A DNA stretch of 32,000 bases from Pannonibacter sp. SL95 (lineage in GTDB: Bacteria; Pseudomonadota; Alphaproteobacteria; Rhizobiales; Stappiaceae), in assembly GCF_026672425.1 (NCBI RefSeq), contig NZ_JAPPRC010000003.1, positions 1,853,541-1,885,540 of the forward strand, written 5' to 3'. Every line of letters starts with the position of its first letter. Within the stretch, counting starts at the first letter, position 1. A program made the position numbers and the translations under genes. Shown here piece by piece: positions 8,733-25,532 of this stretch. The notes below the pieces were generated by a model that saw only the letters and a list, made by a program, of their open reading frames with translations, ran no database searches and was not told where the DNA came from.

Positions 8733-9770
8733 TCAGCCTTCTGCCGGCCAGCGCTCGAAGGCGGCGGGGCCGCCGCAGGAGGGATGCGGCATGAAGCTGC
8801 CGGGGATGGTGATGACACCTGCCGGCGCCTCGAACAGCTCGGGTTGCCGGAGATGGTCGATCACCCGGGCGATGTAGGCATCAAGGTCATAGCCGATGGA
8901 CGAGATCGGATAGGCTTCCGAGCGGGCGAGCGGCAGCGCATCAAAGCCGTAGAAGGCCCAGTCACCCGGCTTGCGGGCGATCTCCGCCCGGCCGGCATCG
9001 ATGACACCCATGGCCATGGCGTCGGCGGTGGCGAAGATCGCGGCTTCCGGTCCATCGCGCAGGACGGCGGCAGAGAGGCTGCGGCCACTTTCATAGGAAT
9101 AATCGCCGGCGTGTTCGGCACTCAGGGTGAGGCCCTGGGCGGCGAAGGCAGCGCGGTAGGCGGCGATGCGCGCCTGTTCCACCGGCGAGGTCTGGCGACC
9201 CGTGACGAGCACGGCCCGGCTCTTGCCACGTGCCCTGGCATGGGCAACGGCTGCGGCAATCGGCGTTGCCTCGTCGGCGACAATCGAGGGGGCCGTGTCA
9301 TCGCGCATGCCGTTGAGCATCACGATCCGGTTGGTGCGGAACATGGTGCGGACGGTTGCGGCATTGGCGAAGTCGGAGAAGACCAGCGCGGCGTCCACAT
9401 GCCAGGCAACGCCATTGCGCAGGAACTCCTCGACCCGGTCGAGCGAGCCAACGCGCAGCAACACAACCTGCTTGCCGGTGTCCTGGATGGCCGCGATGAG
9501 GCGATCAAAGAGGACAAGATCGGAAAAGTCGTGAATGTGATTGACGATGACCGCGACCAGATTAAGCGTGCGCGACTTGAGGCTGCGGGCAATCAGATTC
9601 GGCTTGAAACCGAGCTGTTCGGCCGCAGCCAGTACCTTTGCCTTCTTCTCGGCCGACACGGGGCGGTCTTCCGGTGACAGCGCGCGTGAGGCGATGGCAC
9701 GCGACACCCCGGCAAGCGCGGCGACATCCGCGATGGTGATGTTGGTCGAGGACTTGTCTTTGGAACTCAT
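8733..9770 (-). CDS. LacI family transcriptional regulator
   Basis: N-terminal HTH NITIADVAALAGVSRAIASRALS, followed by a periplasmic-binding-protein-like effector domain. 345 aa. Confidence 0.9.
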   Translation of the reverse strand: MSSKDKSSTNITIADVAALAGVSRAIASRALSPEDRPVSAEKKAKVLAAAEQLGFKPNLIARSLKSRTLNLVAVIVNHIHDFSDLVLFDRLIAAIQDTGKQVVLLRVGSLDRVEEFLRNGVAWHVDAALVFSDFANAATVRTMFRTNRIVMLNGMRDDTAPSIVADEATPIAAAVAHARARGKSRAVLVTGRQTSPVEQARIAAYRAAFAAQGLTLSAEHAGDYSYESGRSLSAAVLRDGPEAAIFATADAMAMGVIDAGRAEIARKPGDWAFYGFDALPLARSEAYPISSIGYDLDAYIARVIDHLRQPELFEAPAGVITIPGSFMPHPSCGGPAAFERWPAEG

Positions 9771-9820
9771 ACGCTTTTTTGACGGGTCCCGGGCGGGGCG
9801 TCAATCACAACCGGAAGAAC

Positions 9821-10793
9821 ATGTCTGTCACAATGAGCAAATCCATGCTGGCCTGTTTTGATATCGGTGCAAGTGCCATCAAGGGCGCACCCTTTCACGC
9901 GCCCTCCGACCGTCCGGTTGCGACGCGGCTGGCGACGCCGCTTGAAGACCTTGACCTGTTCGCGGCAACGCTCGGGCAGGGGATTGCCGACATGGAGCGG
10001 TCGCAAGCCACTGAGGCAGCGGCTGTCGCGATCTCGATTGCCGGGGTGGTTGATGCGCGGACGGGGATCATGACCTGCGCCAACATCCCCGCGATCCATG
10101 GGCGCAATCTTTCGGGCGAACTCTCCGCCCGGCTGGGGCGGCCGGTCTTTATCGCCAATGATGCGGATTGCTTTGCCCTGGCGGAAGCAAGCCAGGGGGC
10201 CGGGCGGGGCCATGACGTGGTGTTCGGCGTGATCCTCGGCTCCGGCGTCGGCGGCGGGCTGGCGATCAACCGGCGCATCGTTTCCGGGCCCGGCGGCTAT
10301 GGCGGCGAATGGGGGCATGGACCGGTGTTTGGCTGCGTGCCGGCATTGCGCGGACGCCTGGAAGCCGCAGGTCTGCCGGTGTTCGACTGCGGCTGCGGCC
10401 AGATCGGCTGCGTTGACACGGTGGGCGGTGCGCGCGGGCTGGAACGCCTCCACCGCTTTGTCGGCGGCGCGGCGCTGGCCAGCCACGAGATCACCGCCGG
10501 ATGGCTGGCTAAGCGAGGCCAAGGCCAGCGAAGCCATTGACCTCTATCTCGATCTTGTGTCCGGACCGCTAGCCATGATGGTCAACACGGTCGGCGCCTC
10601 GGTGCTGCCGGTCGGCGGCGGGCTTTCGGGGTGCCGGCCTCTCGTTGCCGCGCTGGACGAGCGCCTGAGGGCCCGCATCCTGTGGCGCAGCGACGCGCCG
10701 CTGCTGGTGCCGGCCGAACTTTCCCCCGAGCCCGGCCTGATCGGCGCGGCGATGCTCGGCCTGACCCACCTGTCGGAGATGCGTGATGTCTGA
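9821..10793 (+). pseudogene. ROK-family sugar kinase (N-acetylglucosamine-kinase-like), interrupted by a +1 frameshift near 10500-10520
   Basis: Frame A carries CFDIGASAIKGA, ANDADCFALAEA, GSGVGGGLA...GGYGGEWGH and the Zn motif CGCGQIGCVD, then stops at 10540. Frame B continues ROK-like (EAKASEAIDLYLDLVSGPLAMMVNTVGASVLPVGGGLS...PGLIGAAML) to 10793. Removing one nt near 10512 joins them. Confidence 0.7.
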
Positions 10794-11541
10794 TGTGCTG
10801 CCTGAGGTGCTGCTTGAAGTCTGTGTCGACGGTCCGGAAGGCTTGCTGGCGGCCGTGCGGGGCGGGGCAGGGCGCGCCGAACTCTGCGCGGCTCTTGCCA
10901 TCGGCGGACTGACGCCGGCCCCGGGGCTGATGGCGCTGGCCGCCGAGCAGCCGATCCCGGTGTGGCCGCTCCTGCGCGTCCATCCCGGGCCGTTCCGCTA
11001 CACCCCGGCGGATGTGCGGGCGCTGAAGTCCGACATGGACACGGTGGCGGGCTTCGGCCTTGCGGGTGTGGTCATCGGCGCCAATGATGCCTCCGGTCAG
11101 CTGGACCGGCCTGTGCTGGCGGAGCTGGCGGACCATGCCCGTGGGCGCGGCCTCGGGCTGACGCTGCACCGGGCCTTTGATCTGGCGGCGGTGAATGATC
11201 CGGAGGGCGCGGTCGATCTGGCGGTGGAGCTGGGCTTTGACCGGATCCTGACGTCCGGTGCGGCGCGGACGGCCGAGGCGGGGCTTGCCGTTCTGGAGCG
11301 GATTGTCGCCCATGCCGGCAACCGCATTTCCATCCTGCCGGGCTCGGGCATCTCGCGGGCCAATGTGGATGCGATCCTCGACCGGCTGGGCGTGCGCGAG
11401 GTGCATTCCTCCTGCTCGGCCCCCGACCTGACCGGCACCGAGGGCGAGCGGGCGCTCGGGTTCCTGGCCGATGCGCCCAAGCGCACTGATGAGGCGACAG
11501 TGCGGGGGCTGGTGCAGCATCTGGCCGCGCGAGGGCGCTGA
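10786..11541 (+). CDS. cutC: CutC family protein (copper homeostasis protein CutC homologue, TIM barrel)
   Basis: LLEVCVDGPEGLLAAVRGGAGRAELCAAL..GGLTP, LTLHRAFD, RILTSG, ILPGSGI and REVHSS match the CutC family pattern. The start overlaps the end of the ROK gene. Confidence 0.85.
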   Translation: MSDVLPEVLLEVCVDGPEGLLAAVRGGAGRAELCAALAIGGLTPAPGLMALAAEQPIPVWPLLRVHPGPFRYTPADVRALKSDMDTVAGFGLAGVVIGANDASGQLDRPVLAELADHARGRGLGLTLHRAFDLAAVNDPEGAVDLAVELGFDRILTSGAARTAEAGLAVLERIVAHAGNRISILPGSGISRANVDAILDRLGVREVHSSCSAPDLTGTEGERALGFLADAPKRTDEATVRGLVQHLAARGR

Positions 11542-11565
11542 GGCGGCATTACAGGATTGTTCCAG

Positions 11566-11595
11566 TCGTCGCTCCTGCCTTCGCAGGAGCGACGA
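11566..11595. terminator. perfect 13-bp stem-loop between convergent genes (possible bidirectional terminator)
   Basis: Stem tcgtcgctcctgc and gcaggagcgacga around loop cttc. No clear U tract on either strand. Confidence 0.35.
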
Positions 11596-11635
11596 AGGAT
11601 AGGGTTCCACCGTCACTTGGGGCCGGTTGCCGGGA

Positions 11636-12793
11636 TTATTCGCCCGGCGCGCCTTTGGCCGCGTCAGTCTGATCGGCGCCTGCGGTGCGGTTGGTCCGCC
11701 GCTTTTCCAGAAGCGTCAGGATCAGCGGTGCGAAGGCGATCAAAAGGACGATACGGGCGATGTGGTGGCTGGCCACATAGGCGACTTCGGCCTTCATCGC
11801 GAGGGCGATGAGGCTCATTTCGGTGAGGCCGCCGGGCGCATAGGCGAGCACGATCTGCGCCGGTGTCTGCATCATGATGCCGGCGAAGAGGGCGGCAAAG
11901 ACCAGGGTCAGACCGAGGGTCATCACGGTCGCGCCGAAGCTCAGGGCCAGCGCCTGTGCCACCTCGCGGCTGCCGGCGCCGAGGAAGCGGCAGCCCATGA
12001 TGGTGCCCATCAGCACTTGCGCGATGATGATCAGCAGAGCAGGTGGTGCGCTGGCGGTGAGCCCGGTGATATGGACCAGGGCGCTGAGCAGCATCGGCCC
12101 CATCAGCGTGGCAGCTGGCAGTTTCAGACGGGTTGCACCGACCGCGCCGATGACGCCGCAGAGCGTCAGGAGGGCGATGTCCTCCAGTGCGAGCGGATTG
12201 GTCTTCGCCATGATCGTGCCGACCGACTGGCCCTCGACGATGCGGAACCAGAAGGACACGAGGCAGATGGTGACGACGATGCGGGCGGCGTGGGCAAGGA
12301 TGATCTTGCGCTCGTCGCCGCCGAGATCCGCGCCAAGCGTGACCATTTCCATCAGGCCGCCCGGCATGCCGGAACAGAAGGCGGTGACCCGGTCAAAGCC
12401 GCCAAAGCGCTGGTAGAACGGCACGGCGAGCAGGCCGGCGATGGCGAGATAGAGCGCGAGGAAGCCGAGGGAAATGGCCCAGTCGTCGAGGTGGCCGATG
12501 AGGTCGGGTGAAAAGCCCGAACCCAGCATCACGCCGATGACGGTGACAAGCGCCGGGCGCAGGCGCAAGGGCGCGCGGATCGGTGCCTTTGCGACGGCTG
12601 CGACCATCGTGAAGATCATCGAGCCCAGCGTCCAGGGCAGCGGCATGTGCAGAAGATAGAAGATGGCACCGCCGAGGGTTCCGATGGCGATGCCGGCCGC
12701 GATCCGGCCGAGAAGGGCAAGGGTGTCGCCCTTGCCGCTTCGTTCAAGGGGCTCCGCCGATGGGGAGCCGTCAGGGGAGCCAGTTTCAGACAC
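11636..12793 (-). CDS. AbrB-family membrane protein (duplicated 'putative ammonia monooxygenase/AbrB' domain; likely transporter-like)
   Basis: Highly hydrophobic with two similar halves (...[17 protein letters not shown]... and ...[18 protein letters not shown]...). The GTG at 12793 overlaps the stop of the upstream acyltransferase by 8 nt. The start is uncertain. Confidence 0.7.
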
Positions 12794-13397
12794 GGTACTT
12801 TTCGATGAATTCGTCGATGGACAGCATGCGGATGTCGGGCAGGACTGCCCTGAGGGCGTCGTGGCTCCAGTCCCACCAGGCGATGGCCTGAAGGGCGTCC
12901 GCCTGGGCTTCAGAGAATCGCCGCTTGATCGGACGGGCCGGAACGCCGCCAACGATGGTATAGGGCTCGACATCCTTCGACACAACCGCGCCGGCACCGA
13001 TGACCGCCCCGTTGCCCACCGTCACACCGGCGAGGATGGTGACACCGTGGCCGATCCAGACATCATGGCCGATGGTGACCCAGTGATCCTTGCGCCACTG
13101 GAAGAATTCGGCGTCATCCTCGCCAAGGCCATACTGGGCGGCGCGGTAGGTGAAATGATGCTGGCTGGCGCGCCAGGTGGCGTGGTTGCCCGGATTGATG
13201 CGTACGCCTTCGGCAATGGAGCAGAACTTGCCGATGGTGGACCAGACGATGTTGCCGCCCTTCACGATGTAGGAATAGTCACCCACGCTGGATTCGCGCA
13301 GCGAGACATGCGCCATGATCTCGGTCCACTTGCCGATTTCACAATCGACGACAGTGGCGGTCTCGTGGATGCTGGGGGCTTCGGAGAGCATTTTCAT
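12786..13397 (-). CDS. hexapeptide-repeat acyltransferase (phosphonate-metabolism-associated transferase family)
   Basis: Left-handed beta-helix repeats ([44 protein letters not shown]). The start shares 1 nt (13397) with the phnE stop codon. This position matches the hexapeptide transferase seen in many phn clusters. Confidence 0.8.
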
Positions 13398-14275
13398 TAT
13401 CGTGTACCGTCGTATTTGCCGATGAAACGGGTGCGGATGTAGGCGGACAAGGCGTCGATGACATAGACCATGGCGATGATCAGGAAGATGATCGACCAGG
13501 CCTCGTCCCAGCGGTAGGCGCCGATGCGGTCGGAGAGCAGGAAGCCGATGCCGCCGGCACCGACGATGCCGAGGATCGTACCCGATCGCACGTTGGATTC
13601 GAAGTTGTACAGCGTGATCGACAGCAGCACCGGCAACACCTGCGGCAGGATGCCGAAGCGGATCGACTGCAGCGGCGAGCCGCCCGAGGCGATCACCCCT
13701 TCCACCGGCTTCTTCGAGGTGTTCTCGATCGCCTCGGCATAGAGCTTGGCGAGGACGCCGATCTCGCCGACCGCGATCGCCAGCACGCCGGCGAGCGGAC
13801 CGAGGCCGAAGGCGCGGATGAAGATCAGGGCGAGGATCAGCGTCTCGAAGGCCCGGATGATGTCGAAGCCACGCCGCACACCGAAGCGCAGGAACGGGAT
13901 GCGGTTGATGTTCTTGGCGCCGAGGAAGGACAGCGGAAAGGCGATGAGCGCGCCGAGCAGCGATCCGAGGAAGGCCATCGACAGGGTCTGGGCGAGGCCG
14001 GTGAGGATCTCGGAGATTTCCTTCCAGGAGGTCCAGATGTGCGGCGGGAACATGAAGGACAGCACCTTGCCGAGGCGCAGGATGCCGTTCCAGAGCCGCT
14101 CGGGAGCGGCGTTGAAGTCATAGAGGCACCAGGCGAACAGGGCGGTGAAGGCGGCCCAGAAGGCCAGCCTTGCCAGGCGCTGGGACAGCGGTGCGCGGAA
14201 GGCATGCGGCAGACGCGCCTTGGCCGCGGCGATGTCGGCGGGGGAGACGGGCTGAGCTTTGACCGAGGGCATCAC
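13397..14275 (-). CDS. phnE: phosphonate ABC transporter permease PhnE (second copy)
   Basis: PhnE-like TM protein (…[29 protein letters not shown]…, [35 protein letters not shown]). 4-nt overlap with the upstream phnE. Confidence 0.9.
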
Positions 14276-15183
14276 GCAGTCCTTTCAAGGCCAATGATAT
14301 GATGGCGGATCTTCTCCGACACCCAGTCGATCACGGTGACCGTGACGAGGATGATCAGGAACAGGGCGGAGAGATCGGTGTATTCCTGGTAGGAAAGCGC
14401 GGTGCGGAACTCCTGGCCGAGACCGCCGGCACCGACATAGCCGATGATCGAGGACGAGCGGACGTTGATCTCGAAACGCAGCAACGTGTAGCTGATGATG
14501 TTGGGCATGATCTGCGGCACGATGCCGTAGCGGATCTGGTCGAACCAGCTGCCGCCCGAGGCTTTGACGCCCTCCAGCGGGCGCATGTCGGCATTTTCGT
14601 TCACCTCGGAATAGAGCTTGCCGAGGGAGCCGACCGTGTGCAGCGCGATGGCGAGGACGCCGGCGAGCGGACCTGCACCAAAGCAGAAGACGAAGATCAG
14701 CGCGAAGACCAGTTCCGGAACCGTGCGGGCAATCTCCAGCGCGCGGCGCGAGATCCACAGCGTGACCGGTCCGGGCGTCAGGTTGCGGGCGGCCAGGAAG
14801 GACAGCAGGAAGCCGCCAACGAGGCCGAGCACGGTGGCCATGAAGGCGATCAGGATGGTCTCCAGCAGCAGCCAGAGCCACACTTTCCAGCGCCAGAACC
14901 AGCTTGCGAGATCCGCGCCAAGGCTGTCGAGTGACAGGGCCGGGATGGTCTTCCAGAGATATTCACCCAGGCGCGGCAGGCCCGCGAGCAGCACCCAGCG
15001 CTCGGCGCGGCTGCCGTCGGACAGGGTGATCTGGCTCACCTTGAAGAAATCAGAGAAATTGGCGGTGACTAGGAACAGCACCAGGAAGATCAGCGTCACG
15101 CCGAGGAAGGTCAACCGCGACCGGTTGCGCTGTGCGGCATAGTCCCGCTCGAAGGCGAGCACCGACGGGGGTACCAAAGTCAT
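14272..15183 (-). CDS. phnE: phosphonate ABC transporter permease PhnE (first copy)
   Basis: PhnE-like (…LLETILIAFMATVLGLVGGFLLSFLAARN…, EVNENADMRPLEGVKASGGSWFDQIRYGIVPQIMP). 303 aa. Confidence 0.9.
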   Translation of the reverse strand: MTLVPPSVLAFERDYAAQRNRSRLTFLGVTLIFLVLFLVTANFSDFFKVSQITLSDGSRAERWVLLAGLPRLGEYLWKTIPALSLDSLGADLASWFWRWKVWLWLLLETILIAFMATVLGLVGGFLLSFLAARNLTPGPVTLWISRRALEIARTVPELVFALIFVFCFGAGPLAGVLAIALHTVGSLGKLYSEVNENADMRPLEGVKASGGSWFDQIRYGIVPQIMPNIISYTLLRFEINVRSSSIIGYVGAGGLGQEFRTALSYQEYTDLSALFLIILVTVTVIDWVSEKIRHHIIGLERTA

Positions 15184-15491: not shown

Positions 15492-16400
15492 TCAGCCGCG
15501 GCGCTGCTTCTTGAACCAGTCGCGCATGTCGATGATCCACTGGTAGCGGTCGTGGTTCACCTCGACATAGCCCTTGGCGGTCGACTTTTCGGCGCCCGAC
15601 ATTTCCTTGAAGGCGACCGGGTCGGCGGTCGGGACGTTCTTGACGGCGTCCTTCATGGCGGTGATCAAGCCTTCCGGCAGGTTGGCGCGGGCGGTGAAGG
15701 GGCCGGAGGTGATTTCCGGGGACTGCCAGATCCAGCAGATCTCGCCCTTCTTGATCATGCCCTTGGCTTCCATGCGCTGCGGAATGCCGTTGATCTCGTT
15801 GTTGATGTAGGTGGCGGCGGCGTCGAACTGGCCGTTGGCGACACCGGCGACACCGGCTTCATGGCTGCCCGAGAAGGGGATCGCGCCGAAGAATTCGGTC
15901 GGCTTGAAGCCCTGCTTGTCGAGGTTGAAGTAGGGAACGTTGTAGCCGGAGGTGCTGTCCGGATCGGCGAAGGCGAGCGTCTTGCCCTTCAGGTCCTCGA
16001 CCTTCTTGTAGGGGCTGTCGCAGCGCACGACGACAACCGAGAAATAGCCGGTGGAGCCGTCTTCCTGCTGCTGGGTGAGCAGCGGCACCATGCCGCCTTC
16101 GGACTCGGTGTAGGCGGCCGCATAGGCGGAGGAGCCGAGGAAGGCGAATTCGATCTGGTTTGCGGCCAGAGCCTGGATGACGCCGTCGTAGTTGCCGGCG
16201 GTGAAGATCTCCACGTCCACGCCGACCGTCTTCTTCAGGTAGTCCTTGAAGGGGGTGTAGCGGGCGATGCGGTCGCTTTCGTTTTCGCCGGACAGGATGC
16301 CGAACTTGACGACCTTGTAGTCCTTCTTCCAGTCCTCGGCATGGGCGGCGGTGGCGCCGAGGCCGAGGGCAAGCATGGTGGCGGCTGCAATGATACGCAT
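15492..16400 (-). CDS. phnD: phosphonate ABC transporter substrate-binding protein PhnD
   Basis: Signal peptide MRIIAAATMLALGLGATAAHA. PhnD-like body (FGILSGEN..., DPDSTSGYNVPYF, SGSHEAGVAGVANGQFDAAA). GGGAGA RBS. Confidence 0.9.
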   Translation of the reverse strand: MRIIAAATMLALGLGATAAHAEDWKKDYKVVKFGILSGENESDRIARYTPFKDYLKKTVGVDVEIFTAGNYDGVIQALAANQIEFAFLGSSAYAAAYTESEGGMVPLLTQQQEDGSTGYFSVVVVRCDSPYKKVEDLKGKTLAFADPDSTSGYNVPYFNLDKQGFKPTEFFGAIPFSGSHEAGVAGVANGQFDAAATYINNEINGIPQRMEAKGMIKKGEICWIWQSPEITSGPFTARANLPEGLITAMKDAVKNVPTADPVAFKEMSGAEKSTAKGYVEVNHDRYQWIIDMRDWFKKQRRG

Positions 16401-16434: not shown

Positions 16435-17241
16435 TCAGGCCGGCACCGCGAGCTTCAGGCTCGTCGATGTCACGGATTCGGAGAAGTCTTCCAGCTCTTC
16501 ACTGCCGTAGATGCTGCGCATCACGTCACCGGTGAGCAGGCGCGGCGCGCCGTCGAACATCACCCGGCCGGCGCGCATGGCGATGATGCGGTCGCAGTAG
16601 TTGCGGGCGGTGTCGAGGGTGTGCAGGTTGACCAGGATGGTGATGCCATCCTCACGGTTGATGGTGCGCAGGGCGTCCATCACGCGGGTGGCATTGCCCG
16701 GATCGAGGCTGGCGATCGGCTCGTCGGCGAGCAGGATGCGCGGGTTCTGGACCAGGGCACGGGCAATGGCGACGCGCTGCTGCTGGCCGCCTGACAAGGT
16801 GCCGGCGCGCTGCAGTGCCTGCGGAGCGAGATCGAGGCGGTCCAGCGCGTGAATGGCGAGGGTGCGTTCCTCGTCGGAGAACTGCATCGCCATGGAACTG
16901 AGAAAACCATGGGCCGAAAGGCGGCCGACCAGCACATTGGTCAGAACGTCGAGGCGTTCGACCAGATTGAACTGCTGGAAGATCATGGCGCAGTCGCGCC
17001 GCCAGTCGCGCAGGGCCTTGCCCTTCAGCGCACCGACGTTGAGACCGCCGAAATGAATGCTCCCCTCGGTCGGGTCAATCAGCCGGTTGATGAGGCGCAG
17101 CAGCGTGGACTTGCCTGCACCTGAGCGTCCGATCACCCCGACGAACTGGCCCGGGGCGATGGTGAGCGTGACGTTGTCGACGGCGCGGGTGGCGCCGAAG
17201 GAGCGGCCGAGGCCAGAGAGGGAAAGAATGTTCTGTTCCAT
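16435..17241 (-). CDS. phnC: phosphonate ABC transporter ATP-binding protein PhnC
   Basis: Walker [28 protein letters not shown] and LLADEP. First gene of the phnCDEE unit. Confidence 0.9.
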
Positions 17242-17308: not shown

Positions 17309-17326
17309 GTGACGCAGCGGTGACGC
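17309..17326 (-). promoter_or_regulatory. Pho-box-like direct repeat upstream of phnC (GCGTCAC-CGCT-GCGTCAC on the minus strand)
   Basis: Two identical 7-mers spaced by 4 nt (11-bp period), 68-85 nt upstream of the phnC ATG. Resembles the PhoB box CTGTCAT-N4-CTGTCA(C/T). A sister motif lies upstream of phnF (25394-25411). Confidence 0.45.
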
Positions 17327-17590
17327 CTTTTTGCCCCGCGGGCCGGAAAGGTCCTCCGGATCGTGGGAGAACCCCTGGGATGCTGACCGTCCAGTGGTCT
17401 CAACTCATAAAAAACAATGGGTTAGAACTTTGAACACATCGGTGGAAAGCAGCCGATGCCATGGAAAGTTCATCGATGGGTCGCGGAACTGTCATGTGCT
17501 TCGCGCAAAGTCATTCGAACCAATTTTGCGCTGGCTGCCCCGTACTCCGACGCGCCCGCCCCATGCCTGCCATGCCGTCAGGAAAAGGCA

Positions 17591-18400
17591 ATGATCGAGA
17601 CTGCCGACCAATTCGAGGGACTGGCCGAATTCTATGAGGCCAACCGTCCCGGCTATCCTTGCGATGTGTTTGCGCATCTGGGCCAGACCTGTCCGACGCG
17701 GCAGGGTCTTCGGGTGGCCGTCGACGTGGGGGCAGGACCGGGCAACTCGACAGAGAACCTGCTGACCGGTCTCGGCGAGGGCTGGAGCGTGATCGCCAGC
17801 GAACCGGGCGAGGACATGCGCCGGGTGCTGATGCGCCGGTTCCGCACAACGCCGCAGGTGCAGATCATCGCAGCGCCGGCCGAGCAGCTGGCGCTGCCAT
17901 CGGGCTTTGCCTCGCTGGTGGTCGCCTGTTCGGCAGTGCACTGGTTCGACCGGCCGAAATTCTATGCCGAGGCGGCGCGGATCCTGGCGCCGGGCGGCGT
18001 GCTGGCACTGGTGCGCAACCGGCGGCGGCCGGCGCAGATCTTCGACGACTTCGAGGCCTATGTCAGCGAGCATTATCCGAGCCGGGTGGAGCTGGAAGCC
18101 CGCGAGCTGCGCAAGGAGCCGAGCCACACGGAACTCTCCGGCCTCGACGGCTTCCTGACGGCGCACAGCCGGCGCTGGCCCTGGTCGCGTGCCTTCACCG
18201 CGCGCGAGCTGATCGACTTCTACCTGACGCGGGCGACCGTCTGGGCTGTGGTGCGGCGTCTCGGGCTGTCGCGGGTGATGGCGGATTATCTGGAAATCTG
18301 CGCCCGGCACGGGCTCTCCGGCGAGACGCGGATGGAGGTGCAGTTCGACACACTGGTGCGCTGGACCCAGCGCCGGGCTCGGTCGGCCAAGGGCGGCTGA
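17591..18400 (+). CDS. class I SAM-dependent methyltransferase
   Basis: Motif I VDVGAGPGNST, then IASEPGEDM and LAPGGVLAL. ATG 17591 is preceded by AGGAAAAGG. 269 aa. The longer ORF from 17456 has no support. Confidence 0.75.
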   Translation: MIETADQFEGLAEFYEANRPGYPCDVFAHLGQTCPTRQGLRVAVDVGAGPGNSTENLLTGLGEGWSVIASEPGEDMRRVLMRRFRTTPQVQIIAAPAEQLALPSGFASLVVACSAVHWFDRPKFYAEAARILAPGGVLALVRNRRRPAQIFDDFEAYVSEHYPSRVELEARELRKEPSHTELSGLDGFLTAHSRRWPWSRAFTARELIDFYLTRATVWAVVRRLGLSRVMADYLEICARHGLSGETRMEVQFDTLVRWTQRRARSAKGG

Positions 18401-18752: not shown

Positions 18753-19925
18753 TCAGGCGGCGCGCAGGGTGCTGCCGAGGGAGCCGTCGGAGTAGATGAA
18801 CCGGCCCTGACGCAGGGTGGCACAGACATGGCCGATACCCGTTTCATCCGCAATGACAAGATCGGCAAGGCGGCCGGTCTCGAGGCTGCCGCGGTCGGTC
18901 AGACCCAGGGAATCTGCCGGGTTGCGGGTGGCGAGGCGCACCGCGCCGGGCAGGCCGGCGGGATCGGTCTTCGCCAGTTCCAGAAGCGCCGGCAGCATGG
19001 CGGAGGGATGGTAGTCCGAGGCCAGCATGTCGAGTACACCGGCCGCATGGGCCTCCCGGGCCGACAGGTTGCCGGAGTAGGACTGGCCGCGCAGGGCGTT
19101 GGGGGCGCCCATGGCGGTGGCGAGCCCGAGGCGGCGGGCCTCCTGGGCGGCCTCGATCGTCACCGGGAACTCGCTGATGACGACGCCGAGGCCCTGCATC
19201 AGTGCGACCTTGGCCAGCGTGTCGTCGTCATGGCTGGCCAGCGCCACGCCATGGCTGCGGCACAGGTCGGAAATGGCCGAGAGGGTGGCGGCCAGCACGT
19301 CGGCCGGCTGGGTGCGTTCCTCGATGCGGCGGGCGACCGCCTCGGCGGCCTCCTCGCGGCTCATGCCCTTCTCGCGGGCCATCTTCTGCACGTGGCGCTC
19401 GATGTCGCGGTACTGGCCCTGACCGGGGGTGTGGTCGGTCAGGGAGATGAGGTCGACTGTGCCTTCCGAAATCAGCTCGCCGATGACGTCCAGCGCCTTG
19501 GGGAAGGTGATCTCGAAGCGGGCGTGGACGCGGTGGTCGACGTTGAGGCTGCCGCGCATGGCCTTGAGCTTGCGGATGATCGCGCTGGTATGCTCGTAGC
19601 TGCGCAGGTGGCCATAGGTCGACATGGGGCTAAAGGACACGGCGGCATAGGCCGTCGTGAAGCCGGCGCCGGCCAGGCGCCGGTCGAGGTCGCGCAGGCC
19701 CAGTTCCAGCGGCATCGGTACGTTGGGCCGCGGCTCGACCTCGCGCTCGACCATGTCGCCGTGCATGTCGACGAAGCCCGGCAGGAGCAGGAGGCCGTTG
19801 CCCTGAAGGCTGGCACCGGCGACGGGGCCCTCGCGCAGCTCGGCGATGTGCCCGTCCTCGATGCGCAGCGAACCGTGCTCGATCACCTCGGTCGGGGTGA
19901 CGATGCGAAAATCAGACAGCCACAT
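18753..19925 (-). CDS. phnM: PhnM (alpha-D-ribose 1-methylphosphonate 5-triphosphate diphosphatase, amidohydrolase fold)
   Basis: LLLPGFVDMHGD, SLTDHTPGQGQY, ALASHDD, EFPVT, MGAPNALRG and ASDYHPSAM are PhnM-type motifs. Start ATG 19925 (MWLSDFRIV...) overlaps the end of phnL. Confidence 0.85.
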   Translation of the reverse strand: MWLSDFRIVTPTEVIEHGSLRIEDGHIAELREGPVAGASLQGNGLLLLPGFVDMHGDMVEREVEPRPNVPMPLELGLRDLDRRLAGAGFTTAYAAVSFSPMSTYGHLRSYEHTSAIIRKLKAMRGSLNVDHRVHARFEITFPKALDVIGELISEGTVDLISLTDHTPGQGQYRDIERHVQKMAREKGMSREEAAEAVARRIEERTQPADVLAATLSAISDLCRSHGVALASHDDDTLAKVALMQGLGVVISEFPVTIEAAQEARRLGLATAMGAPNALRGQSYSGNLSAREAHAAGVLDMLASDYHPSAMLPALLELAKTDPAGLPGAVRLATRNPADSLGLTDRGSLETGRLADLVIADETGIGHVCATLRQGRFIYSDGSLGSTLRAA

Positions 19926-20673
19926 GCTCAAGGTCTCCAGGTGCGGCTTTGGGGGCGGCTTGGGTTTCAGCGCCAGCTTCATCCGGCAGGCGCTGGGTGG
20001 TCAGGAGGATTTCCCGGTCGATGAGGTCGGCCACGTCGCCGGGATGGTGGAAGACGCCGATCATGGCGACCCCGGCGGACTTGAGATCGGCGAGGCGGCG
20101 GACGAGCGCCGCACGGGCACCGGCGTCGAGCGAGGCGGTCGGCTCGTCGAGCAGCAGGAGCTTCTGCGGCAGGATCAGCGCGCGGGCGAGGTTCACCTTC
20201 TGCTGCTCGCCGCCGGAGAAGGTGGTGGGATAGGCGCGCCAGAGGTCGCGCTTGACGCCGAACTCGCCGAGCCAGCGGCGGGCTTCGTCAAGGGCTTCGG
20301 CCTGAGCCACGCCGGCCCGGCGCAGCGGTTCGGCCACGATCTCGTCGGCCGCAACACGCGGACGGGCAACGAGGAACTGGGTGACGAAGCCGATTTCGCG
20401 GCGGCGCAGCAAGGTGATGTCCACGTCGGCAGCGGTGGCCAGGTCAATGCGGCCCTCTGCGGCCTGGTACCAGACGTGACCGTCCTGGGGCAGGTAACTG
20501 CGGTAGAGGGTGCGCAGGAGGGTGGACTTGCCGACGCCGTTCTCGCCGCGCAGCAGCAGGAATTCGCCGGCGTGAAGACGGAAGGAAATGCCGCTGAAGG
20601 CGTGCAGGTCCTGGTCGAGGTGATACATGTGGAAGCGCTTCGACAGGCCTTCCACGTCGAGAACCGGGGTCAT
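19912..20673 (-). CDS. phnL: PhnL (C-P lyase system ATP-binding subunit)
   Basis: Walker A GENGVGKSTLLR, FSGGEQQKVNLARAL and LLLDEPTASLD. ATG 20673 with an AAGGA RBS is preferred. A TTG at 20697 (TTGA overlap with phnK) is the alternative. Confidence 0.85.
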   Translation of the reverse strand: MTPVLDVEGLSKRFHMYHLDQDLHAFSGISFRLHAGEFLLLRGENGVGKSTLLRTLYRSYLPQDGHVWYQAAEGRIDLATAADVDITLLRRREIGFVTQFLVARPRVAADEIVAEPLRRAGVAQAEALDEARRWLGEFGVKRDLWRAYPTTFSGGEQQKVNLARALILPQKLLLLDEPTASLDAGARAALVRRLADLKSAGVAMIGVFHHPGDVADLIDREILLTTQRLPDEAGAETQAAPKAAPGDLEHVAV

Positions 20674-20693: not shown

Positions 20694-21521
20694 TCAAAGT
20701 TTCGCGTGGACAAGCTGCTGGGTGTATTCGTGCTGCGGGTCCTGGAAGACCTGGTCGACCAGTCCCTGCTCGACCACCCGGCCGCGGCGCATGACCATGA
20801 CCCGGTCGGCCATGGTGTGAATGACGCCGAGATCGTGCGAGACGATGACCATGGTGATGGAGCGGTCGCGCTGCAGCCGCTTCAGCGTGTCGAGGACGAG
20901 GGCCTGGACGGAGACGTCAAGCCCGGTGGTCGGCTCGTCGAGCAGCAGGAGCGCCGGCTCCAGCGCGATGGCCTTGGCGAGCTGGACGCGCTGCTGCATG
21001 CCGCCCGACAGTTCGATCGGCCGTGCATCCATGCGCTCCAGCGGGAACTCGGACGCGTCCAGCGCCTCGCGGGCCTTGTCGCGCAGCACCTTGAAGCTGC
21101 GCTCGCCGGCGATGAGCAGGCGTTCGGCCACGTTGCCGGAGGAGGAATGGCGCATCAGCAGGCCGAGATGCGGGTTCTGGTAGACGATGCCGATGTTGCG
21201 GGCGCAGAGCATGCGCCGCTCGAAACGGTCGAGGCCGAACAGGTTGCCGCCAAGGCCCGGCAGGTCCAGCTCGTAGGTGCCGGTGTCGGGCGTGTCCTCG
21301 AGGTTCATCATGCGCAAGAGCGTCGACTTGCCGGAGCCGCTCTCGCCGACGATGCCGAGCACCTCGCCCGGATAGACAGTGGCATCCACGTCCTCGAGCG
21401 CGGTGACCTTGCCGAAGCGGCGGGTGATGCCGCGCATGGTGAGAAGCGGCGGTGTCGTCATCAGCTGCGGCAGCTGGCGCGGAGCGGCCTCGCCGCGCGG
21501 CGCGGGGCTTTGGGCGGTCAT
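20694..21521 (-). CDS. phnK: PhnK (C-P lyase system ATP-binding subunit)
   Basis: [41 protein letters not shown] and C-terminal DPQHEYTQQLV, as in PhnK. Confidence 0.9.
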   Translation of the reverse strand: MTAQSPAPRGEAAPRQLPQLMTTPPLLTMRGITRRFGKVTALEDVDATVYPGEVLGIVGESGSGKSTLLRMMNLEDTPDTGTYELDLPGLGGNLFGLDRFERRMLCARNIGIVYQNPHLGLLMRHSSSGNVAERLLIAGERSFKVLRDKAREALDASEFPLERMDARPIELSGGMQQRVQLAKAIALEPALLLLDEPTTGLDVSVQALVLDTLKRLQRDRSITMVIVSHDLGVIHTMADRVMVMRRGRVVEQGLVDQVFQDPQHEYTQQLVHAKL

Positions 21522-22435
21522 GGCTGGAGCTCTCCGTTCTTGTACCAGGTGTCGATGGCGGCCAGGGCCTCGCCCTCGCTGCGGCGGATGGCCTTGATGC
21601 CGAAGTGGCTGTCGGAGACCTCGAAGCTGGACGAGCCGTCGTCCTGCGGGATCTCGTTCATGAAATAGCCGGTGAGGCCGGAGCGGTGGCAGGTGAGGTC
21701 GTGGTGCTCCTCGACCTTGTAGGGCACGTCGGAGAAGACCAGCGGCTCGACCCGGGTGTAGGGCGGCACGGCATAGAGGCGCTTCTCGCGGCCGGCCGAG
21801 AGGAACGTGAGGTGCCTTGCCATGTGCAGCTTCGGCACGTCCCAGCGCGGGATCGGCGAGGGCGTCATCACATGGCGGCCGTTGACGAGGCTCGGGTAGG
21901 CCGCGCCCTGCATGATGCGGCCGGAGCGGACCATCTGCTCGTAGAGCGTCAGCCAGAGCCGGCCGTAGTCGGCATCGGCGTGCATCTGGCGGGCGACCGA
22001 CATGTTGGGCTCGACAGGACGCAAGGGTTCCGGGTTGGGCACCTGCAGCACGAGGATCTGATCCTCGCGCAGCACTTCCTCCGGCACCCGGTGGCGCGAC
22101 TGCAGGATGGTCGCCTCGCCCGTGTCCCAGGTCTCGCCGGCGCCGGAGACGCGGGAGAGGAACTTGCGGATCGAGGCGGCGTTGACGCTGTCGTCGGCGC
22201 CCTGGTCGATGACCTTGACCACGGAGGTGGGCTTCAGCAGCGTCAGGGTCACCTGCAGGCCGCCGGTGCCCCAGCCGCGGGCAATCGGTACCTCGCGGCT
22301 GGCGTAGGGCATCTGGCAGCCGGGCACGGCGACCGCCTTCAGCATCTTGCGGCGCAGCTCGCGCTTGGCCGAGGCATCGAGGAACCCGTAGGAGAAGGCC
22401 TCCCAGGGCTTTGTCAGGCTGGCAAGGCTGGTCAT
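21518..22435 (-). CDS. phnJ: PhnJ homologue (C-P lyase catalytic subunit family), atypical: lacks the conserved C-terminal cysteine cluster
   Basis: PhnJ blocks RGWGTGGLQVT, KVIDQGADDSVNA and SAGREKRLYAVPPYTRVEP. 4-nt overlaps with phnI and phnK. Only two Cys in 305 aa (see findings). Confidence 0.85.
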   Translation of the reverse strand: MTSLASLTKPWEAFSYGFLDASAKRELRRKMLKAVAVPGCQMPYASREVPIARGWGTGGLQVTLTLLKPTSVVKVIDQGADDSVNAASIRKFLSRVSGAGETWDTGEATILQSRHRVPEEVLREDQILVLQVPNPEPLRPVEPNMSVARQMHADADYGRLWLTLYEQMVRSGRIMQGAAYPSLVNGRHVMTPSPIPRWDVPKLHMARHLTFLSAGREKRLYAVPPYTRVEPLVFSDVPYKVEEHHDLTCHRSGLTGYFMNEIPQDDGSSSFEVSDSHFGIKAIRRSEGEALAAIDTWYKNGELQP

Positions 22436-23538
22436 GCGGGAACCTCTTCGGTCACGGCCGGCTGGCGGGCAGGGGCGGGCGCGGTGGACGCCGCGTCCGG
22501 GGCTGCGGCCTTCGCCTTGGCGTCGCGCAGGGCATCCAGCGCCGACTGGAAGGTGACATAGTGGGGGAGCTTGAAGTGGATGCAGAAGCCCGAGGCCTCG
22601 ACCGGCTCGGTGTGGTAGAGGAAGAACTCCTCGTTGACCGGCGAGTTCTGCGGCGCATCTGGCGCGTTGAGATCGAGCGTAGCGCCGGCGATGACCTTGA
22701 TCTCGTTCCAGCCGAAGGTGGCGCAGAAGCCGAGATCGAGCTGGCCGGAGCGGCCCTTGGAGGTCACTTCCGCCTGCGAGACCTTGACCCGGCCGGCGCT
22801 GAACATGGTGCCGCGCGGATGGCGGACGACCACTTCGGCCTCAGCCAGGCGCAGCTCGTTGACAGTCGGATGGGCGTTGCCATAGCCGCGCATGGCGGAA
22901 TAGCCGAGCGCCAGCACGCCGCCGGTGTCGGCGCGGGCGAGGCTCTGCAGCGTGTGGGCGCGCTTGGCCGGGAACAGCAGCGGCTCACGCGTCAGGTCGG
23001 GAATGTCGTCGAGGGCGACATCCTCGCGCGCCGGATCGGCGACGAGGCCTTGCGCCTTCTGCCAGGCGGCCAGCGAGGGCTGCTCAGCCGGGGCGGGCGT
23101 GCTGGCCGGTTCGACCGGAGCGGGCACGAAGGGTCGGCCCTCGAGCACGCCGGTGGCGAGCAACCGGTGCGAATAGTCGAGCGTAGGCCCGAGGATCTGG
23201 CCACCGGGGATGTCCTTGAAGGCGGCGGAGATGCGGCGGTGGGTGAAGAGCTTGTCCTGCGTCACCGGCTCCGCGATGGTGAGGCGCGGCTGGGTGGTGC
23301 GCCAGGCGCGCAGCAGCAGCACCGCCTCGTAGAGGTCGCCGCCGGACTGGGCCAGCGCCAGTGCCGCGAGATCGGCCTCGTAGAGCGAGGCCTCGCCCAT
23401 CACCCGGTCGATCAGCCAGGGCAGGGCGCTGCGGATTTCCGCAACTCGCCCGGCGTCGATGGTGCCCATGTCGGCGCGGTAGAGGCGCTCGGACTGGTCA
23501 ATGGCTTTTTCCCCGCCACGGGTTGCGACATAGGCCAT
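22432..23538 (-). CDS. phnI: PhnI (C-P lyase core complex subunit)
   Basis: MAYVATRGGEKAID..., LLLRAWRTT, FKDIPGGQILGPTLDYSHRLL, RGYGNAHP and HFKLPHYVTFQS match PhnI. Confidence 0.9.
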   Translation of the reverse strand: MAYVATRGGEKAIDQSERLYRADMGTIDAGRVAEIRSALPWLIDRVMGEASLYEADLAALALAQSGGDLYEAVLLLRAWRTTQPRLTIAEPVTQDKLFTHRRISAAFKDIPGGQILGPTLDYSHRLLATGVLEGRPFVPAPVEPASTPAPAEQPSLAAWQKAQGLVADPAREDVALDDIPDLTREPLLFPAKRAHTLQSLARADTGGVLALGYSAMRGYGNAHPTVNELRLAEAEVVVRHPRGTMFSAGRVKVSQAEVTSKGRSGQLDLGFCATFGWNEIKVIAGATLDLNAPDAPQNSPVNEEFFLYHTEPVEASGFCIHFKLPHYVTFQSALDALRDAKAKAAAPDAASTAPAPARQPAVTEEVPA

Positions 23539-24122
23539 CAGAGCACCTCGATCCGGGTCGAGCGGGGCAGGCCGATGACATCGCTGCCATCGACGATGAA
23601 GAGGTCAAAGCCGAGCGGGTAGCGGCAGAGCCGGTCGCGCAGGGCGAAGAAACCCGCCGGCAGGCCGGCGACGGCGATCTCGCGGGTGGTCTCGATGCCC
23701 GGACCCGACAGGCTGAGGCGCTGGCCGTCGCCCTCGGCACGGCCAAGCCGGGCCTCGACGACGACGGTGGCCGCGTCATCGGGATAGAGCGCGGAGCCGA
23801 CCTTCAGGGCGGCGAGGCGCACGATGTCGGCACCCGTCTCCAGCGACAGGAAGACGTGGTCGGCGTCCGCCAGCGGCGTCAGGGTCGCGCCGGTCCAGGC
23901 GGCCAGCTCACCGATGACCGCGTCATCCGCATGGACGCGGCACTCGCGGTCGACGAGGGCGAGCAGAATGGTGCGCGGACCGGGTTCGGGCAGATGGCGG
24001 ATCTCGCCGGGACGGCTCAGCGCCCAGAGGATCGCCTCGAAGGCGGTGTTGTCGCGGATTTCGTCCGCGCCGCGCAAGGGCGCGGTGATCAGGGCGTGGG
24101 AACTGGGGGGCAGGGCACCCAT
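23538..24122 (-). CDS. phnH: PhnH (C-P lyase core complex subunit)
   Basis: 194 aa starting at ATG 24122 (GGAGA RBS). AFEAILWALSRPGEI..., LSLSGPGI..., YPLGFDLFIV and GLPRSTRIEV resemble PhnH. Confidence 0.8.
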   Translation of the reverse strand: MGALPPSSHALITAPLRGADEIRDNTAFEAILWALSRPGEIRHLPEPGPRTILLALVDRECRVHADDAVIGELAAWTGATLTPLADADHVFLSLETGADIVRLAALKVGSALYPDDAATVVVEARLGRAEGDGQRLSLSGPGIETTREIAVAGLPAGFFALRDRLCRYPLGFDLFIVDGSDVIGLPRSTRIEVL

Positions 24123-24150: not shown

Positions 24151-24603
24151 TCAGAAGGTTTCCATGTCGACGCGGGTGGCCTCGACGGCGCACAGGCGCG
24201 CCCGGTCGCGGTCGGCATTGGCCGCTTCCAGCCCGGTGACGAAGGCGTCGATGGCCTTGGGCGCGAGGCCAGCTGCCGCTGCGGCATCAATCAGCGCCAT
24301 GGCCATCGCCCATTCCAGATCGCGGCCCGTGACCATGCCGTAGCCGGTGGCGTCGTGGTCGGTGAGGCGGACCTCAGCTTCGGCGACGAGCACCTCGCCG
24401 AGGTGGAAATCGGTGCCTTTCACCGTGTCGCGGAACGGCAGCATGACCAGGCCGGTGCGGCTGCGCAGGACCTCGACGGCTCCGAGCTGCGTCAGCAGGC
24501 CTTCGGCGAAGCGCTTCACGCTTTCCGCATCGCCATGGGAGAGCGCGGTGAGAAAGGCGCTGTGGCCGCTGGTGGCCTCATGAGTGGTTGTGGTCTCAGT
24601 CAT
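24151..24603 (-). CDS. phnG: PhnG (C-P lyase core complex subunit)
   Basis: 150 aa, the same length as E. coli PhnG. ...TGLVMLPFRDTVKGTDFHLGEVLVAEAEVRL...GYGMVTGRD...A..ALIDAA... The start overlaps the phnF 3' end by 8 nt. Confidence 0.8.
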   Translation of the reverse strand: MTETTTTHEATSGHSAFLTALSHGDAESVKRFAEGLLTQLGAVEVLRSRTGLVMLPFRDTVKGTDFHLGEVLVAEAEVRLTDHDATGYGMVTGRDLEWAMAMALIDAAAAAGLAPKAIDAFVTGLEAANADRDRARLCAVEATRVDMETF

Positions 24604-25342
24604 CCTGGTCAGGACTCCGGGGTTCGGCTTCGTCGGGAAGATCAAAGGAGAATTGCACCCGGTCGGCGGACCAGATGGCCTGGGAATAGCCGATCGGCCG
24701 TCCGGCAAGATCAACGTCCGTCTTGGTCACGACCAGCACGGGCTGGTCGGGATGCTGCTTGAGCAGTCGCGCCTCTTCCGCTGTCGGACGGCGGGCGTAG
24801 ATGGTGGTGCTCTTGCGCAGGTAGTCGGTGATGCCGTGCGCGCGGTAGATGTCGGTCACGGAGCGGCCGGCGCGGCGCTGCTCTGCCATGTCGGGAAAGA
24901 GGTCGAAGGGATGCCAGGCGACGCCGAGGCTGATCGGCACGCCGTCGGCAAGACCGCGGCGCATCAGGCGATGCACGGGCGTGTTCTCGGTCAGCTCCAG
25001 TGCCTCGGCAACGCGGCGCGGGGCCGCGATCACGTCGTCGGTCACCTGTTCGCCGGCCGGCGTTACGCCCTGGCTCAGAAGGTTCTGACGAAAGCGGGTG
25101 CGGCGGCCGATCTGGTAGTTGATGAGAGGCGCGCTTTCGACGAAGGTGCCGCGGCCTTGTTCGACGCGCAGCTTGCCCTCGACTGCAAGAGCGGAAATGG
25201 CCCGGCGGACCGAATGGCGTCCGGCACCGAACTGGGCGCAGAGCTCCGGCTCGGTCGGCAGTTGCGCGCCAGGTGCCAGCACGCCGGAGAGGATGTCGGC
25301 TGCCAGCCGGTCCCGGATCGACTGCCACGTTTCACGCGCCAT
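24596..25342 (-). CDS. phnF: PhnF, GntR/HutC-family transcriptional regulator of the phosphonate operon
   Basis: wHTH LPTEPELCAQFGAGRHSVRRAISALAVEGKLRVEQGRGTFV plus a UTRA-like C-domain. ATG 25342 is preceded by GGAGG at a 7-nt spacing. Confidence 0.85.
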   Translation of the reverse strand: MARETWQSIRDRLAADILSGVLAPGAQLPTEPELCAQFGAGRHSVRRAISALAVEGKLRVEQGRGTFVESAPLINYQIGRRTRFRQNLLSQGVTPAGEQVTDDVIAAPRRVAEALELTENTPVHRLMRRGLADGVPISLGVAWHPFDLFPDMAEQRRAGRSVTDIYRAHGITDYLRKSTTIYARRPTAEEARLLKQHPDQPVLVVTKTDVDLAGRPIGYSQAIWSADRVQFSFDLPDEAEPRSPDQDD

Positions 25343-25393: not shown

Positions 25394-25411
25394 GTGACAG
25401 AGCCGTGACGC
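25394..25411 (-). promoter_or_regulatory. Pho-box-like direct repeat upstream of phnF (GCGTCAC-GGCT-CTGTCAC on the minus strand)
   Basis: 7-4-7 architecture with an 11-bp period, 52-69 nt upstream of the phnF ATG. The second repeat equals the E. coli Pho-box half-site CTGTCAC. Confidence 0.45.
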
Positions 25412-25532
25412 GTCGAGGGAATTGCCGGCCGAGGCGCATATCTGGCATCCAGCCGGTTTACGTTATCGACCTGTCACGCTGCCGCTTCTATGGTCCGTGA
25501 CACCTTGTGCTAGCATCAGGATTGCCTTTGCT

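Follow-up and report, generated by a model that had tools for sequence, protein, structure and literature searches.

For bacteria, carbon-phosphorus (C-P) lyase is the main broad-range means of drawing phosphorus from phosphonates, and 'aerobic' methane from methylphosphonate is accepted to come from it; its accepted mechanism rests on four cysteines (Cys) of the subunit PhnJ. Can such an enzyme work without them? The question is raised by a 32,000-nucleotide stretch of contig NZ_JAPPRC010000003.1 of Pannonibacter sp. SL95 (hereafter the window). It holds one phosphonate locus, on the minus strand, in which a phnJ lacking three of the four cysteines is part of a phnGHIJKLM cluster, flanked by phnI and phnK. 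We find that this gene is a genuine phnJ of a distinct, single-origin, Cys-poor lineage of complete phnGHIJKLM plus phnCDE clusters. We propose, at a probability of roughly 0.65, that the cluster encodes an active C-P lyase, induced by phosphate starvation, that uses neither a PhnJ-bound [4Fe-4S] cluster nor a Cys272 thiyl.

Identity of the window PhnJ

The initial annotation, made from the sequence, had called the product of the 305-amino-acid (aa) open reading frame (ORF) PhnJ-like. This was borne out by a match to PF06007 (PhnJ) of 386.9 bits (cut-off 25), in which protein residues 13-280 cover profile positions 2-270 of 275, making the protein a full-length member of the family. The protein was aligned by HMMER to the solved E. 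coli chains 4xb6_D and 7z15_D (E ~1e-82), and a MAFFT alignment with PhnJ of E. coli MG1655 and Sinorhizobium (S.) meliloti gave the same residue pairing. In both alignments window C249 corresponds to E. coli C241, and S252, V274 and G280 stand at C244, C266 and C272, as expected from the earlier claim that no Cys is available for three of the four motif positions. The E. coli motif given in that annotation is right, the MG1655 sequence reading ...WDEPCAICGSTHSYLDEVVLDDAGNRMFVCSDTDYC..., and alignment to the Pfam PhnJ model, E. coli and S. meliloti did not recover the four cysteines. The window protein thus lacks the CX2CX21CX5C motif, keeping the C241 equivalent alone.

The whole protein has two Cys, C40 and C249, again as first noted. 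C40 (codon at 22316-22318) directly follows G39, the equivalent of E. coli Gly32, so that PGCQ in the window replaces PGYQ in E. coli. Window H115 corresponds to PhnJ His108, and the C-terminus is extended by approximately 25 aa, ending in TWYKNGELQP. An AlphaFold2 model built on a 68-sequence alignment has a predicted local distance difference test (pLDDT) score of 80-87 at residues 241-300, in the C-terminal domain, and low confidence is confined to the PhnK-binding insertion. Foldseek matched this predicted model to 7z19_D (E 2e-31, template modelling (TM) scores 0.74/0.81), that is, to the same predicted fold as E. coli PhnJ.

Could the missing cysteines reflect a sequencing or assembly error, or a C-terminal frameshift? 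Frameshifted canonical phnJ genes are known in public assemblies: in L019 and L020, from Enterobacterales and Rokubacteria metagenome-assembled genomes, the frame is lost right after the first Cys of the motif, and a naive Cys-count screen would wrongly class both as Cys-poor. For the window we regard an error as ruled out for practical purposes. The identical protein is held by NCBI (WP_268136627.1, Pannonibacter sp. SL95, inside a 34-member cluster), the 240 homologues described below are collinear with it, and there are no indels among five alpha-type genes.

Compared with the E. coli C-P lyase core (4XB6, 7Z15-7Z19; alpha-D-ribose 1-methylphosphonate 5-phosphate C-P lyase), the window PhnJ belongs to the same Pfam family and has the same predicted fold and the same operon position, phnI-phnJ-phnK. 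The two PhnJ proteins are 49-50% identical and share Gly32 and His108, and PhnI His219/328/333 are shared as well. In contrast, the window protein is without three of the four motif Cys, including the thiyl Cys272, and has the longer C-terminus; phnN, phnO and phnP of the E. coli cluster are absent from the window cluster. S. meliloti 1021 likewise has an alphaproteobacterial phnGHIJKL, on pSymB, and this C-P lyase is reportedly characterised genetically (Parker et al. 1999). Its PhnJ is canonical (KPCALCG...FVCSDTDHC) and 49.6% identical to that of the window, so S. meliloti, which we had considered as a characterised Cys-less system, offers no precedent for one. Identity to E. coli is lower in the window than in S. 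meliloti for PhnI (39% versus 58%), PhnJ (50% versus 79%), PhnK (44% versus 68%) and PhnL (40% versus 60%); judged by these values, the whole window cluster is a diverged lineage.

A Cys-poor clade of PhnJ

The four cysteines are treated as conserved, and surveys use them as a marker of functional enzymes (PMC11978286). Recent work treats the whole PhnJ Pfam family as radical S-adenosylmethionine (SAM) enzymes. Full-text literature searches returned no mention of a Cys-less PhnJ, an earlier mention in the primary mechanism papers or a 2014 review being possible.

A database search for Cys-poor orthologues and their neighbourhoods yielded 240 proteins and nine loci. The proteins comprise the best 120 homologues of the window PhnJ and the best 120 of PhnJ from Thermus thermophilus, a single-Cys protein 62% identical to that of the window and encoded on pHB5008b and on pVV8 of strain HB8. 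Not one of the 240 has a Cys at the C244, C266 or C272 position. All of the best 120 of the window PhnJ show the two-Cys pattern and are 82-95% identical to it, except one at 68%; the hosts of this alpha-type group include Pannonibacter, Rhizobium, Ochrobactrum, Devosia, Paracoccus and Cereibacter. The best 120 of the Thermus PhnJ came from Anaerolineae, Roseiflexaceae, Oscillochloris, Deinococcus, Meiothermus and hot-spring Synechococcus/Thermostichus. Altogether the Cys-poor hosts are Alphaproteobacteria, Chloroflexota, Deinococcota and hot-spring Synechococcus, and the same compact phn cluster was found at nine loci in four phyla. Three entries labelled Microvirga tunisiensis in NCBI (P0415, P0555 and L053) are identical to Pannonibacter proteins, which suggests a mislabelled or contaminated assembly.

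The two groups differ in their remaining cysteines. All 120 alpha-type proteins have Cys33 (E. coli numbering; the PGCQ Cys after the Gly32 equivalent) together with Gly at 272, an arrangement that looks like a swap of the Gly and Cys of the E. coli pair. In the Thermus/Chloroflexi type, position 33 is mostly Tyr or His and 272 mostly Ala, Leu or Met; the PGCQ-type Cys is sporadic and is the sole Cys in three proteins. The swap therefore fails as a general solution and is at most a sub-clade feature. Of 119 Thermus/Chloroflexi proteins, 92 contain a single Cys and six are Cys-free, and no Cys is universally conserved in Cys-poor PhnJ.

A neighbour-joining tree was built on the PhnJ N-terminal domain alone, so the Cys motif cannot drive the grouping. 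In it all Cys-poor PhnJ form one group nested among canonical lineages (bootstrap 94/100). The four cysteines are present in each of the nearest canonical relatives checked (Methylibium, Haloarcula, P0126 and P0145). The simplest history of the lineage would therefore be that they were lost once and that the Cys-poor form then spread horizontally. The clade is a minority of PhnJ. It accounts for 4 of the 110 classifiable PhnJ loci among those listed in an arbitrary sample of one genome per species, and for approximately 16 of 215 plasmid records, of which two were verified directly and most were assigned by identity. The genome-collection scan gave at least 120 loci, one per genome, and PhnJ representatives at 50% identity were mostly fragments and chimeras.

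Among five alpha-type phnJ genes, which are collinear with zero indels, the pairwise ratio of nonsynonymous to synonymous substitution rates (dN/dS) is 0.06-0.14 in the PhnJ core and 0.06-0.41 in the C-terminal domain. Values below 1 and the lack of indels rule out a decaying pseudogene, and point to purifying selection on the Cys-poor lineage.

Probable activity of the Cys-poor clusters

In E. coli, C241, C244, C266 and C272 form an iron-sulfur (Fe-S)/zinc site, with Cys272 and Gly32 as the relay for the hydrogen radical (PMC11978286; PMC9947105), in agreement with the roles that the initial annotation gave to these residues. PhnI His219/328/333 form a zinc site at which the product is modelled, PhnJ His108 touches the cyclic phosphate in cryo-electron microscopy structures, and the four-Cys site lies 30 Å from Gly32 (PMC9947105). 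The same structural work did not reconcile the four-Cys site with the apparent active site (PMC9947105). The Cys-poor clade is a natural experiment on this conflict. The counterparts of PhnI His219, His328 and His333 and of PhnJ His108 are kept in the clusters of the window, Haematobacter, Thermus and Synechococcus JA-2-3B'a(2-13) (OS-B'). The Gly32 equivalent, together with the neighbouring Pro and Gln, is invariant across 68 diverse Cys-poor PhnJ sequences; the residue of the radical site is thus present, although conservation by itself is no proof of a radical.

Compensating cysteines in other subunits were looked for in alignments of PhnG, PhnH, PhnI, PhnK, PhnL and PhnM from four Cys-poor clusters, in which there is no conserved Cys column; Thermus PhnH, PhnI and PhnM have no Cys whatsoever. 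Nor is a radical-SAM or other extra gene conserved beside the nine Cys-poor clusters. As candidates for such a neighbour, the methyltransferase gene between phnM and phnC is swapped for an IS66 element in Haematobacter, and rlmN near L128 is a one-off. On the sequences, then, a PhnJ-bound [4Fe-4S] site or a Cys272 thiyl is impossible in the Cys-poor lineage. The initial annotation had offered two readings, a catalytically dead lyase or a diverged machine that obtains its cluster or radical differently. With no Fe-S site possible in PhnJ and none in the other six subunits, our results favour the second.

One way to obtain the radical differently would be for an unlinked radical-SAM activase to install it in trans on the conserved Gly; where a genome has two clusters, the activator could be the canonical PhnJ itself. 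The invariance of Gly39 with its Pro and Gln fits this proposal, as does the presence of both cluster types in one assembly of Pannonibacter sp. XCT-34 (see below). We nevertheless consider it improbable. A glycyl radical enzyme would need a Cys as catalytic partner and a radical-SAM activase gene of its own. No Cys is universal in the clade, and no radical-SAM gene is conserved beside the nine clusters, the only one seen being the housekeeping rlmN near L128. Six members lack any Cys, which excludes for them the Gly-to-Cys relay that E. coli PhnJ and known glycyl radical enzymes use. Moreover, within the regions examined, OS-B' and Thermus show a Cys-poor cluster only.

The case for an active lyase draws on regulation and physiology. 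Pho-box-like repeats lie 57-67 nucleotides upstream of phnF in the window, L134, L001 and L130, the loci with conserved distances being those of Pannonibacter XCT-34 (L134), Haematobacter and Devosia; a second repeat, 85 nucleotides upstream of phnC, is kept in L134 as in the window. These sites were found with a relaxed pattern only (nnGTCAY-N4-nnGTCAY, estimated chance matches ~0.04 in the sequence scanned), the strict Pho-box consensus with up to three mismatches giving zero sites.

OS-B' is the sole member of the clade found with physiological data. This strain reportedly has a single phn cluster (Adams 2008; Gomez-Garcia 2011) and gives off methane or ethane, depending on which phosphonate it is supplied with (Gomez-Garcia 2011). 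Its PhnJ (ABD01166.1, in CP000240.1) falls in the Cys-poor clade, is encoded in a minimal phnCDE-GHIJKLM cluster and is ~58% identical to the window PhnJ. It differs from the latter in having His33 instead of Cys33 and Met instead of Gly at 272, and it is without the long C-terminal tail; the cluster shares its core phnCDE-GHIJKLM with the window but is without phnF and the hexapeptide transferase. The relevant passage of PMC5955973, citing Adams 2008, reports growth of OS-B' on a phosphonate (methylphosphonate) as sole phosphorus source, and passages in PMC6962044 and PMC11665274 credit methane formation from methylphosphonate by cyanobacteria to the work of Gomez-Garcia 2011 on OS-B'. The initial annotation had conceded that its point would lose force if Cys-less PhnJ proteins were ordinary in functional lyases. 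In part this is so, to the extent that those passages describe the physiology of OS-B'. The finding is strengthened by it, because the accepted mechanism then fails to cover a working enzyme. A further candidate, the functional Rhodobacteraceae fosmid of Martinez 2013, was set aside as evidence; it has an RcsF/2H phosphoesterase and is probably canonical.

Taken together, the conserved clade, purifying selection, complete clusters, Pho-box-like sites and the membership of OS-B' argue against the catalytically dead lyase. Another possibility is that the clusters no longer cleave unactivated C-P bonds, either because PhnJ serves only as a scaffold or because the system has taken up different chemistry, as the initial annotation also allowed, or another substrate. 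The residues essential in E. coli are gone, phnN and phnP/DUF1045 are found neither in the window nor in most of the Cys-poor clusters, and in the sister strain XCT-34 a canonical cluster is present alongside, all of which would suit such a loss. Against it, all the PhnI-PhnJ pocket residues checked are conserved, the seven core genes stay together across four phyla under purifying selection, linkage to the phosphonate transporter and to Pho-box-like sites persists, and there are the growth on methylphosphonate and the methane attributed to OS-B' in the passages cited above. We judge it unlikely, and a weaker rival than the trans-acting activase.

With a canonical Stappiaceae PhnJ as query, four-Cys PhnJ proteins were found in Pannonibacter sp. 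XCT-34 and XCT-53. The XCT-34 assembly (GCA_009915685.1) contains a canonical locus, L132, and a Cys-poor locus, L134, the latter syntenic with the window. L132 runs phnF, phnGHIJKL, hexapeptide transferase, DUF1045, phnM and phnN; its PhnJ (P0554) has the four Cys and its phnN product shares 39% identity with that of E. coli. Compared with the window, from the same genus, L132 thus has a four-Cys PhnJ, DUF1045 and phnN and is without an adjacent transporter. The contents are complementary, with the transporter in the L134-type cluster and DUF1045 and phnN in L132, which is no more than suggestive.

Several points weigh against an active, Fe-S-free lyase. A canonical four-Cys cluster co-exists in at least one Pannonibacter genome, and the Cys-poor cluster is therefore unneeded to explain phosphonate use in the genus. 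The 32 kb window lacks phnN, phnP and DUF1045. The evidence for radical-SAM chemistry in E. coli is strong, and it is not obvious how an enzyme free of Cys would generate or employ a radical. The link between OS-B' and its Cys-poor cluster is physiological only, and the activity of clade members would be read from sequence and strain physiology.

How might the active lyase that we favour work? From homology, PhnCDE would import the phosphonate, PhnI with PhnG, PhnH and PhnL would couple it to ribose triphosphate, PhnM would remove pyrophosphate, and PhnK and PhnL would remodel the core complex. C-P cleavage would take place at the conserved PhnI-PhnJ pocket, with the His219/328/333 metal site on the PhnI side and His108 on that of PhnJ, probably still giving a 1,2-cyclic phosphate and an alkane. 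Invariant Gly39 may still bear a protein radical, and initiation would come from something other than the CX2CX21CX5C motif. In Pannonibacter a second cluster of the canonical type, at another place in the genome, may provide the DUF1045 phosphodiesterase and PhnN. Although phnN and phnP/DUF1045 are missing from most Cys-poor clusters, that of an Anaerolineae member (L131, 12464-13956) has a gene of the endonuclease/exonuclease/phosphatase family and a 2H/DUF1045-like phosphoesterase gene right after phnL, with phnM lying apart, upstream. The 2H phosphoesterase matches DUF1045 marginally (25.7 bits, cut-off 24.3), and this 2H/DUF1045-type gene is a hint that the 1,2-cyclic phosphate remains the product.

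Since the lineage is without the cluster and radical cysteines yet is probably working, the textbook mechanism cannot apply to it. The broader proposal, that a whole C-P lyase lineage cleaves unactivated C-P bonds with alkane release without a PhnJ Fe-S site or cysteine, is offered tentatively, at slightly less than even odds. If true, it would be a route independent of PhnJ radical-SAM chemistry, and C-P lyase catalysis would not universally require the four-Cys site. A route of this kind might tolerate oxygen, since there are aerobes and an oxygenic phototroph among the named hosts. Should the clade be active, a second mechanistic solution is needed for C-P cleavage, and Cys-based phnJ filters undercount functional genes in metagenomes; if it is inactive, family-level phnJ counts overcount them. 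T. thermophilus HB8, the host of the pVV8 Cys-poor PhnJ, is well suited to structural work.

The phosphonate locus and its surroundings

The features of the locus are collected in Table 1. As the initial annotation stated, no operon gene is disrupted: phnF, phnG, phnH, phnI, phnK, phnL and phnM are intact, each with a family match. The ATGA overlaps were likewise confirmed, the phnI stop and phnJ start codons sharing 22432-22435 and the phnJ stop and phnK start codons 21518-21521. The mechanical ORF of phnF begins further upstream, at TTG 25354.

Table 1. Features of the phosphonate locus, in window positions
Feature	Position	Strand	Length and start	Evidence or remark
phnF, GntR/UTRA regulator	24596..25342	(-)	248 aa, ATG at 25342	as in Pannonibacter XCT-34 homologue
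phnG	24151..24603	(-)	150 aa	PF06754; length as in L134 homologue; stop codon read
phnH	23538..24122	(-)	194 aa, ATG at 24122	PF05845
phnI	22432..23538	(-)	368 aa	PF05861, E 1e-104
phnJ, Cys-poor type	21518..22435	(-)	305 aa	PF06007 profile and alignment to E. coli PhnJ
phnK, ATP-binding cassette (ABC) ATPase	20694..21521	(-)	275 aa	start overlaps phnJ stop
phnL, ABC ATPase	19912..20673	(-)	~253 aa	
phnM	18753..19925	(-)	~390 aa	NCBIfam NF011988, 551.9 bits, cut-off 369
phnC, phosphonate ABC transporter ATPase	16435..17241	(-)		
phnD, periplasmic phosphonate-binding protein	15492..16400	(-)		PF12974, E 1e-57
phnE permeases, two genes	14272-15183 and 13397-14275	(-)		BPD_transp_1
hexapeptide-repeat transferase of phosphonate clusters	12786..13397	(-)		TIGR03308, 289 bits, cut-off 202
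Pho-box-like repeat GCGTCAC-GGCT-CTGTCAC	25394..25411	(-)		upstream of phnF
Pho-box-like repeat GCGTCAC-CGCT-GCGTCAC	17309..17326	(-)		85 nucleotides upstream of phnC

The PhnG ORF (24151-24714, minus strand), like that of L130 (7940-8398), matches the PhnI Pfam profile weakly (E 1.7e-4, profile positions 188-292), which suggests distant homology of PhnG with part of PhnI. Between phnM and phnC, on the opposite strand, lies a gene for a class-I SAM-dependent methyltransferase (Methyltransf_11/25; 17456-18400, plus strand); it is kept in P. tanglangensis (L133/L134), and the IS66 element of Haematobacter occupies this position. Divergent from phnF is the chromate transporter gene chrA (ChrA, PF02417; 25422-26846, plus strand), an adjacency also present in L135. 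A 458-aa ORF over it (25488-26864, minus strand) matches no family and has the look of a shadow ORF. Three further minus-strand ORFs, 9767-10537 (256 aa), 10582-11616 (344 aa) and 28051-28962 (303 aa), are without a Pfam match, and 27236-27859 (plus strand) encodes a 207-aa protein consisting mostly of RTX calcium-binding nonapeptide repeats.

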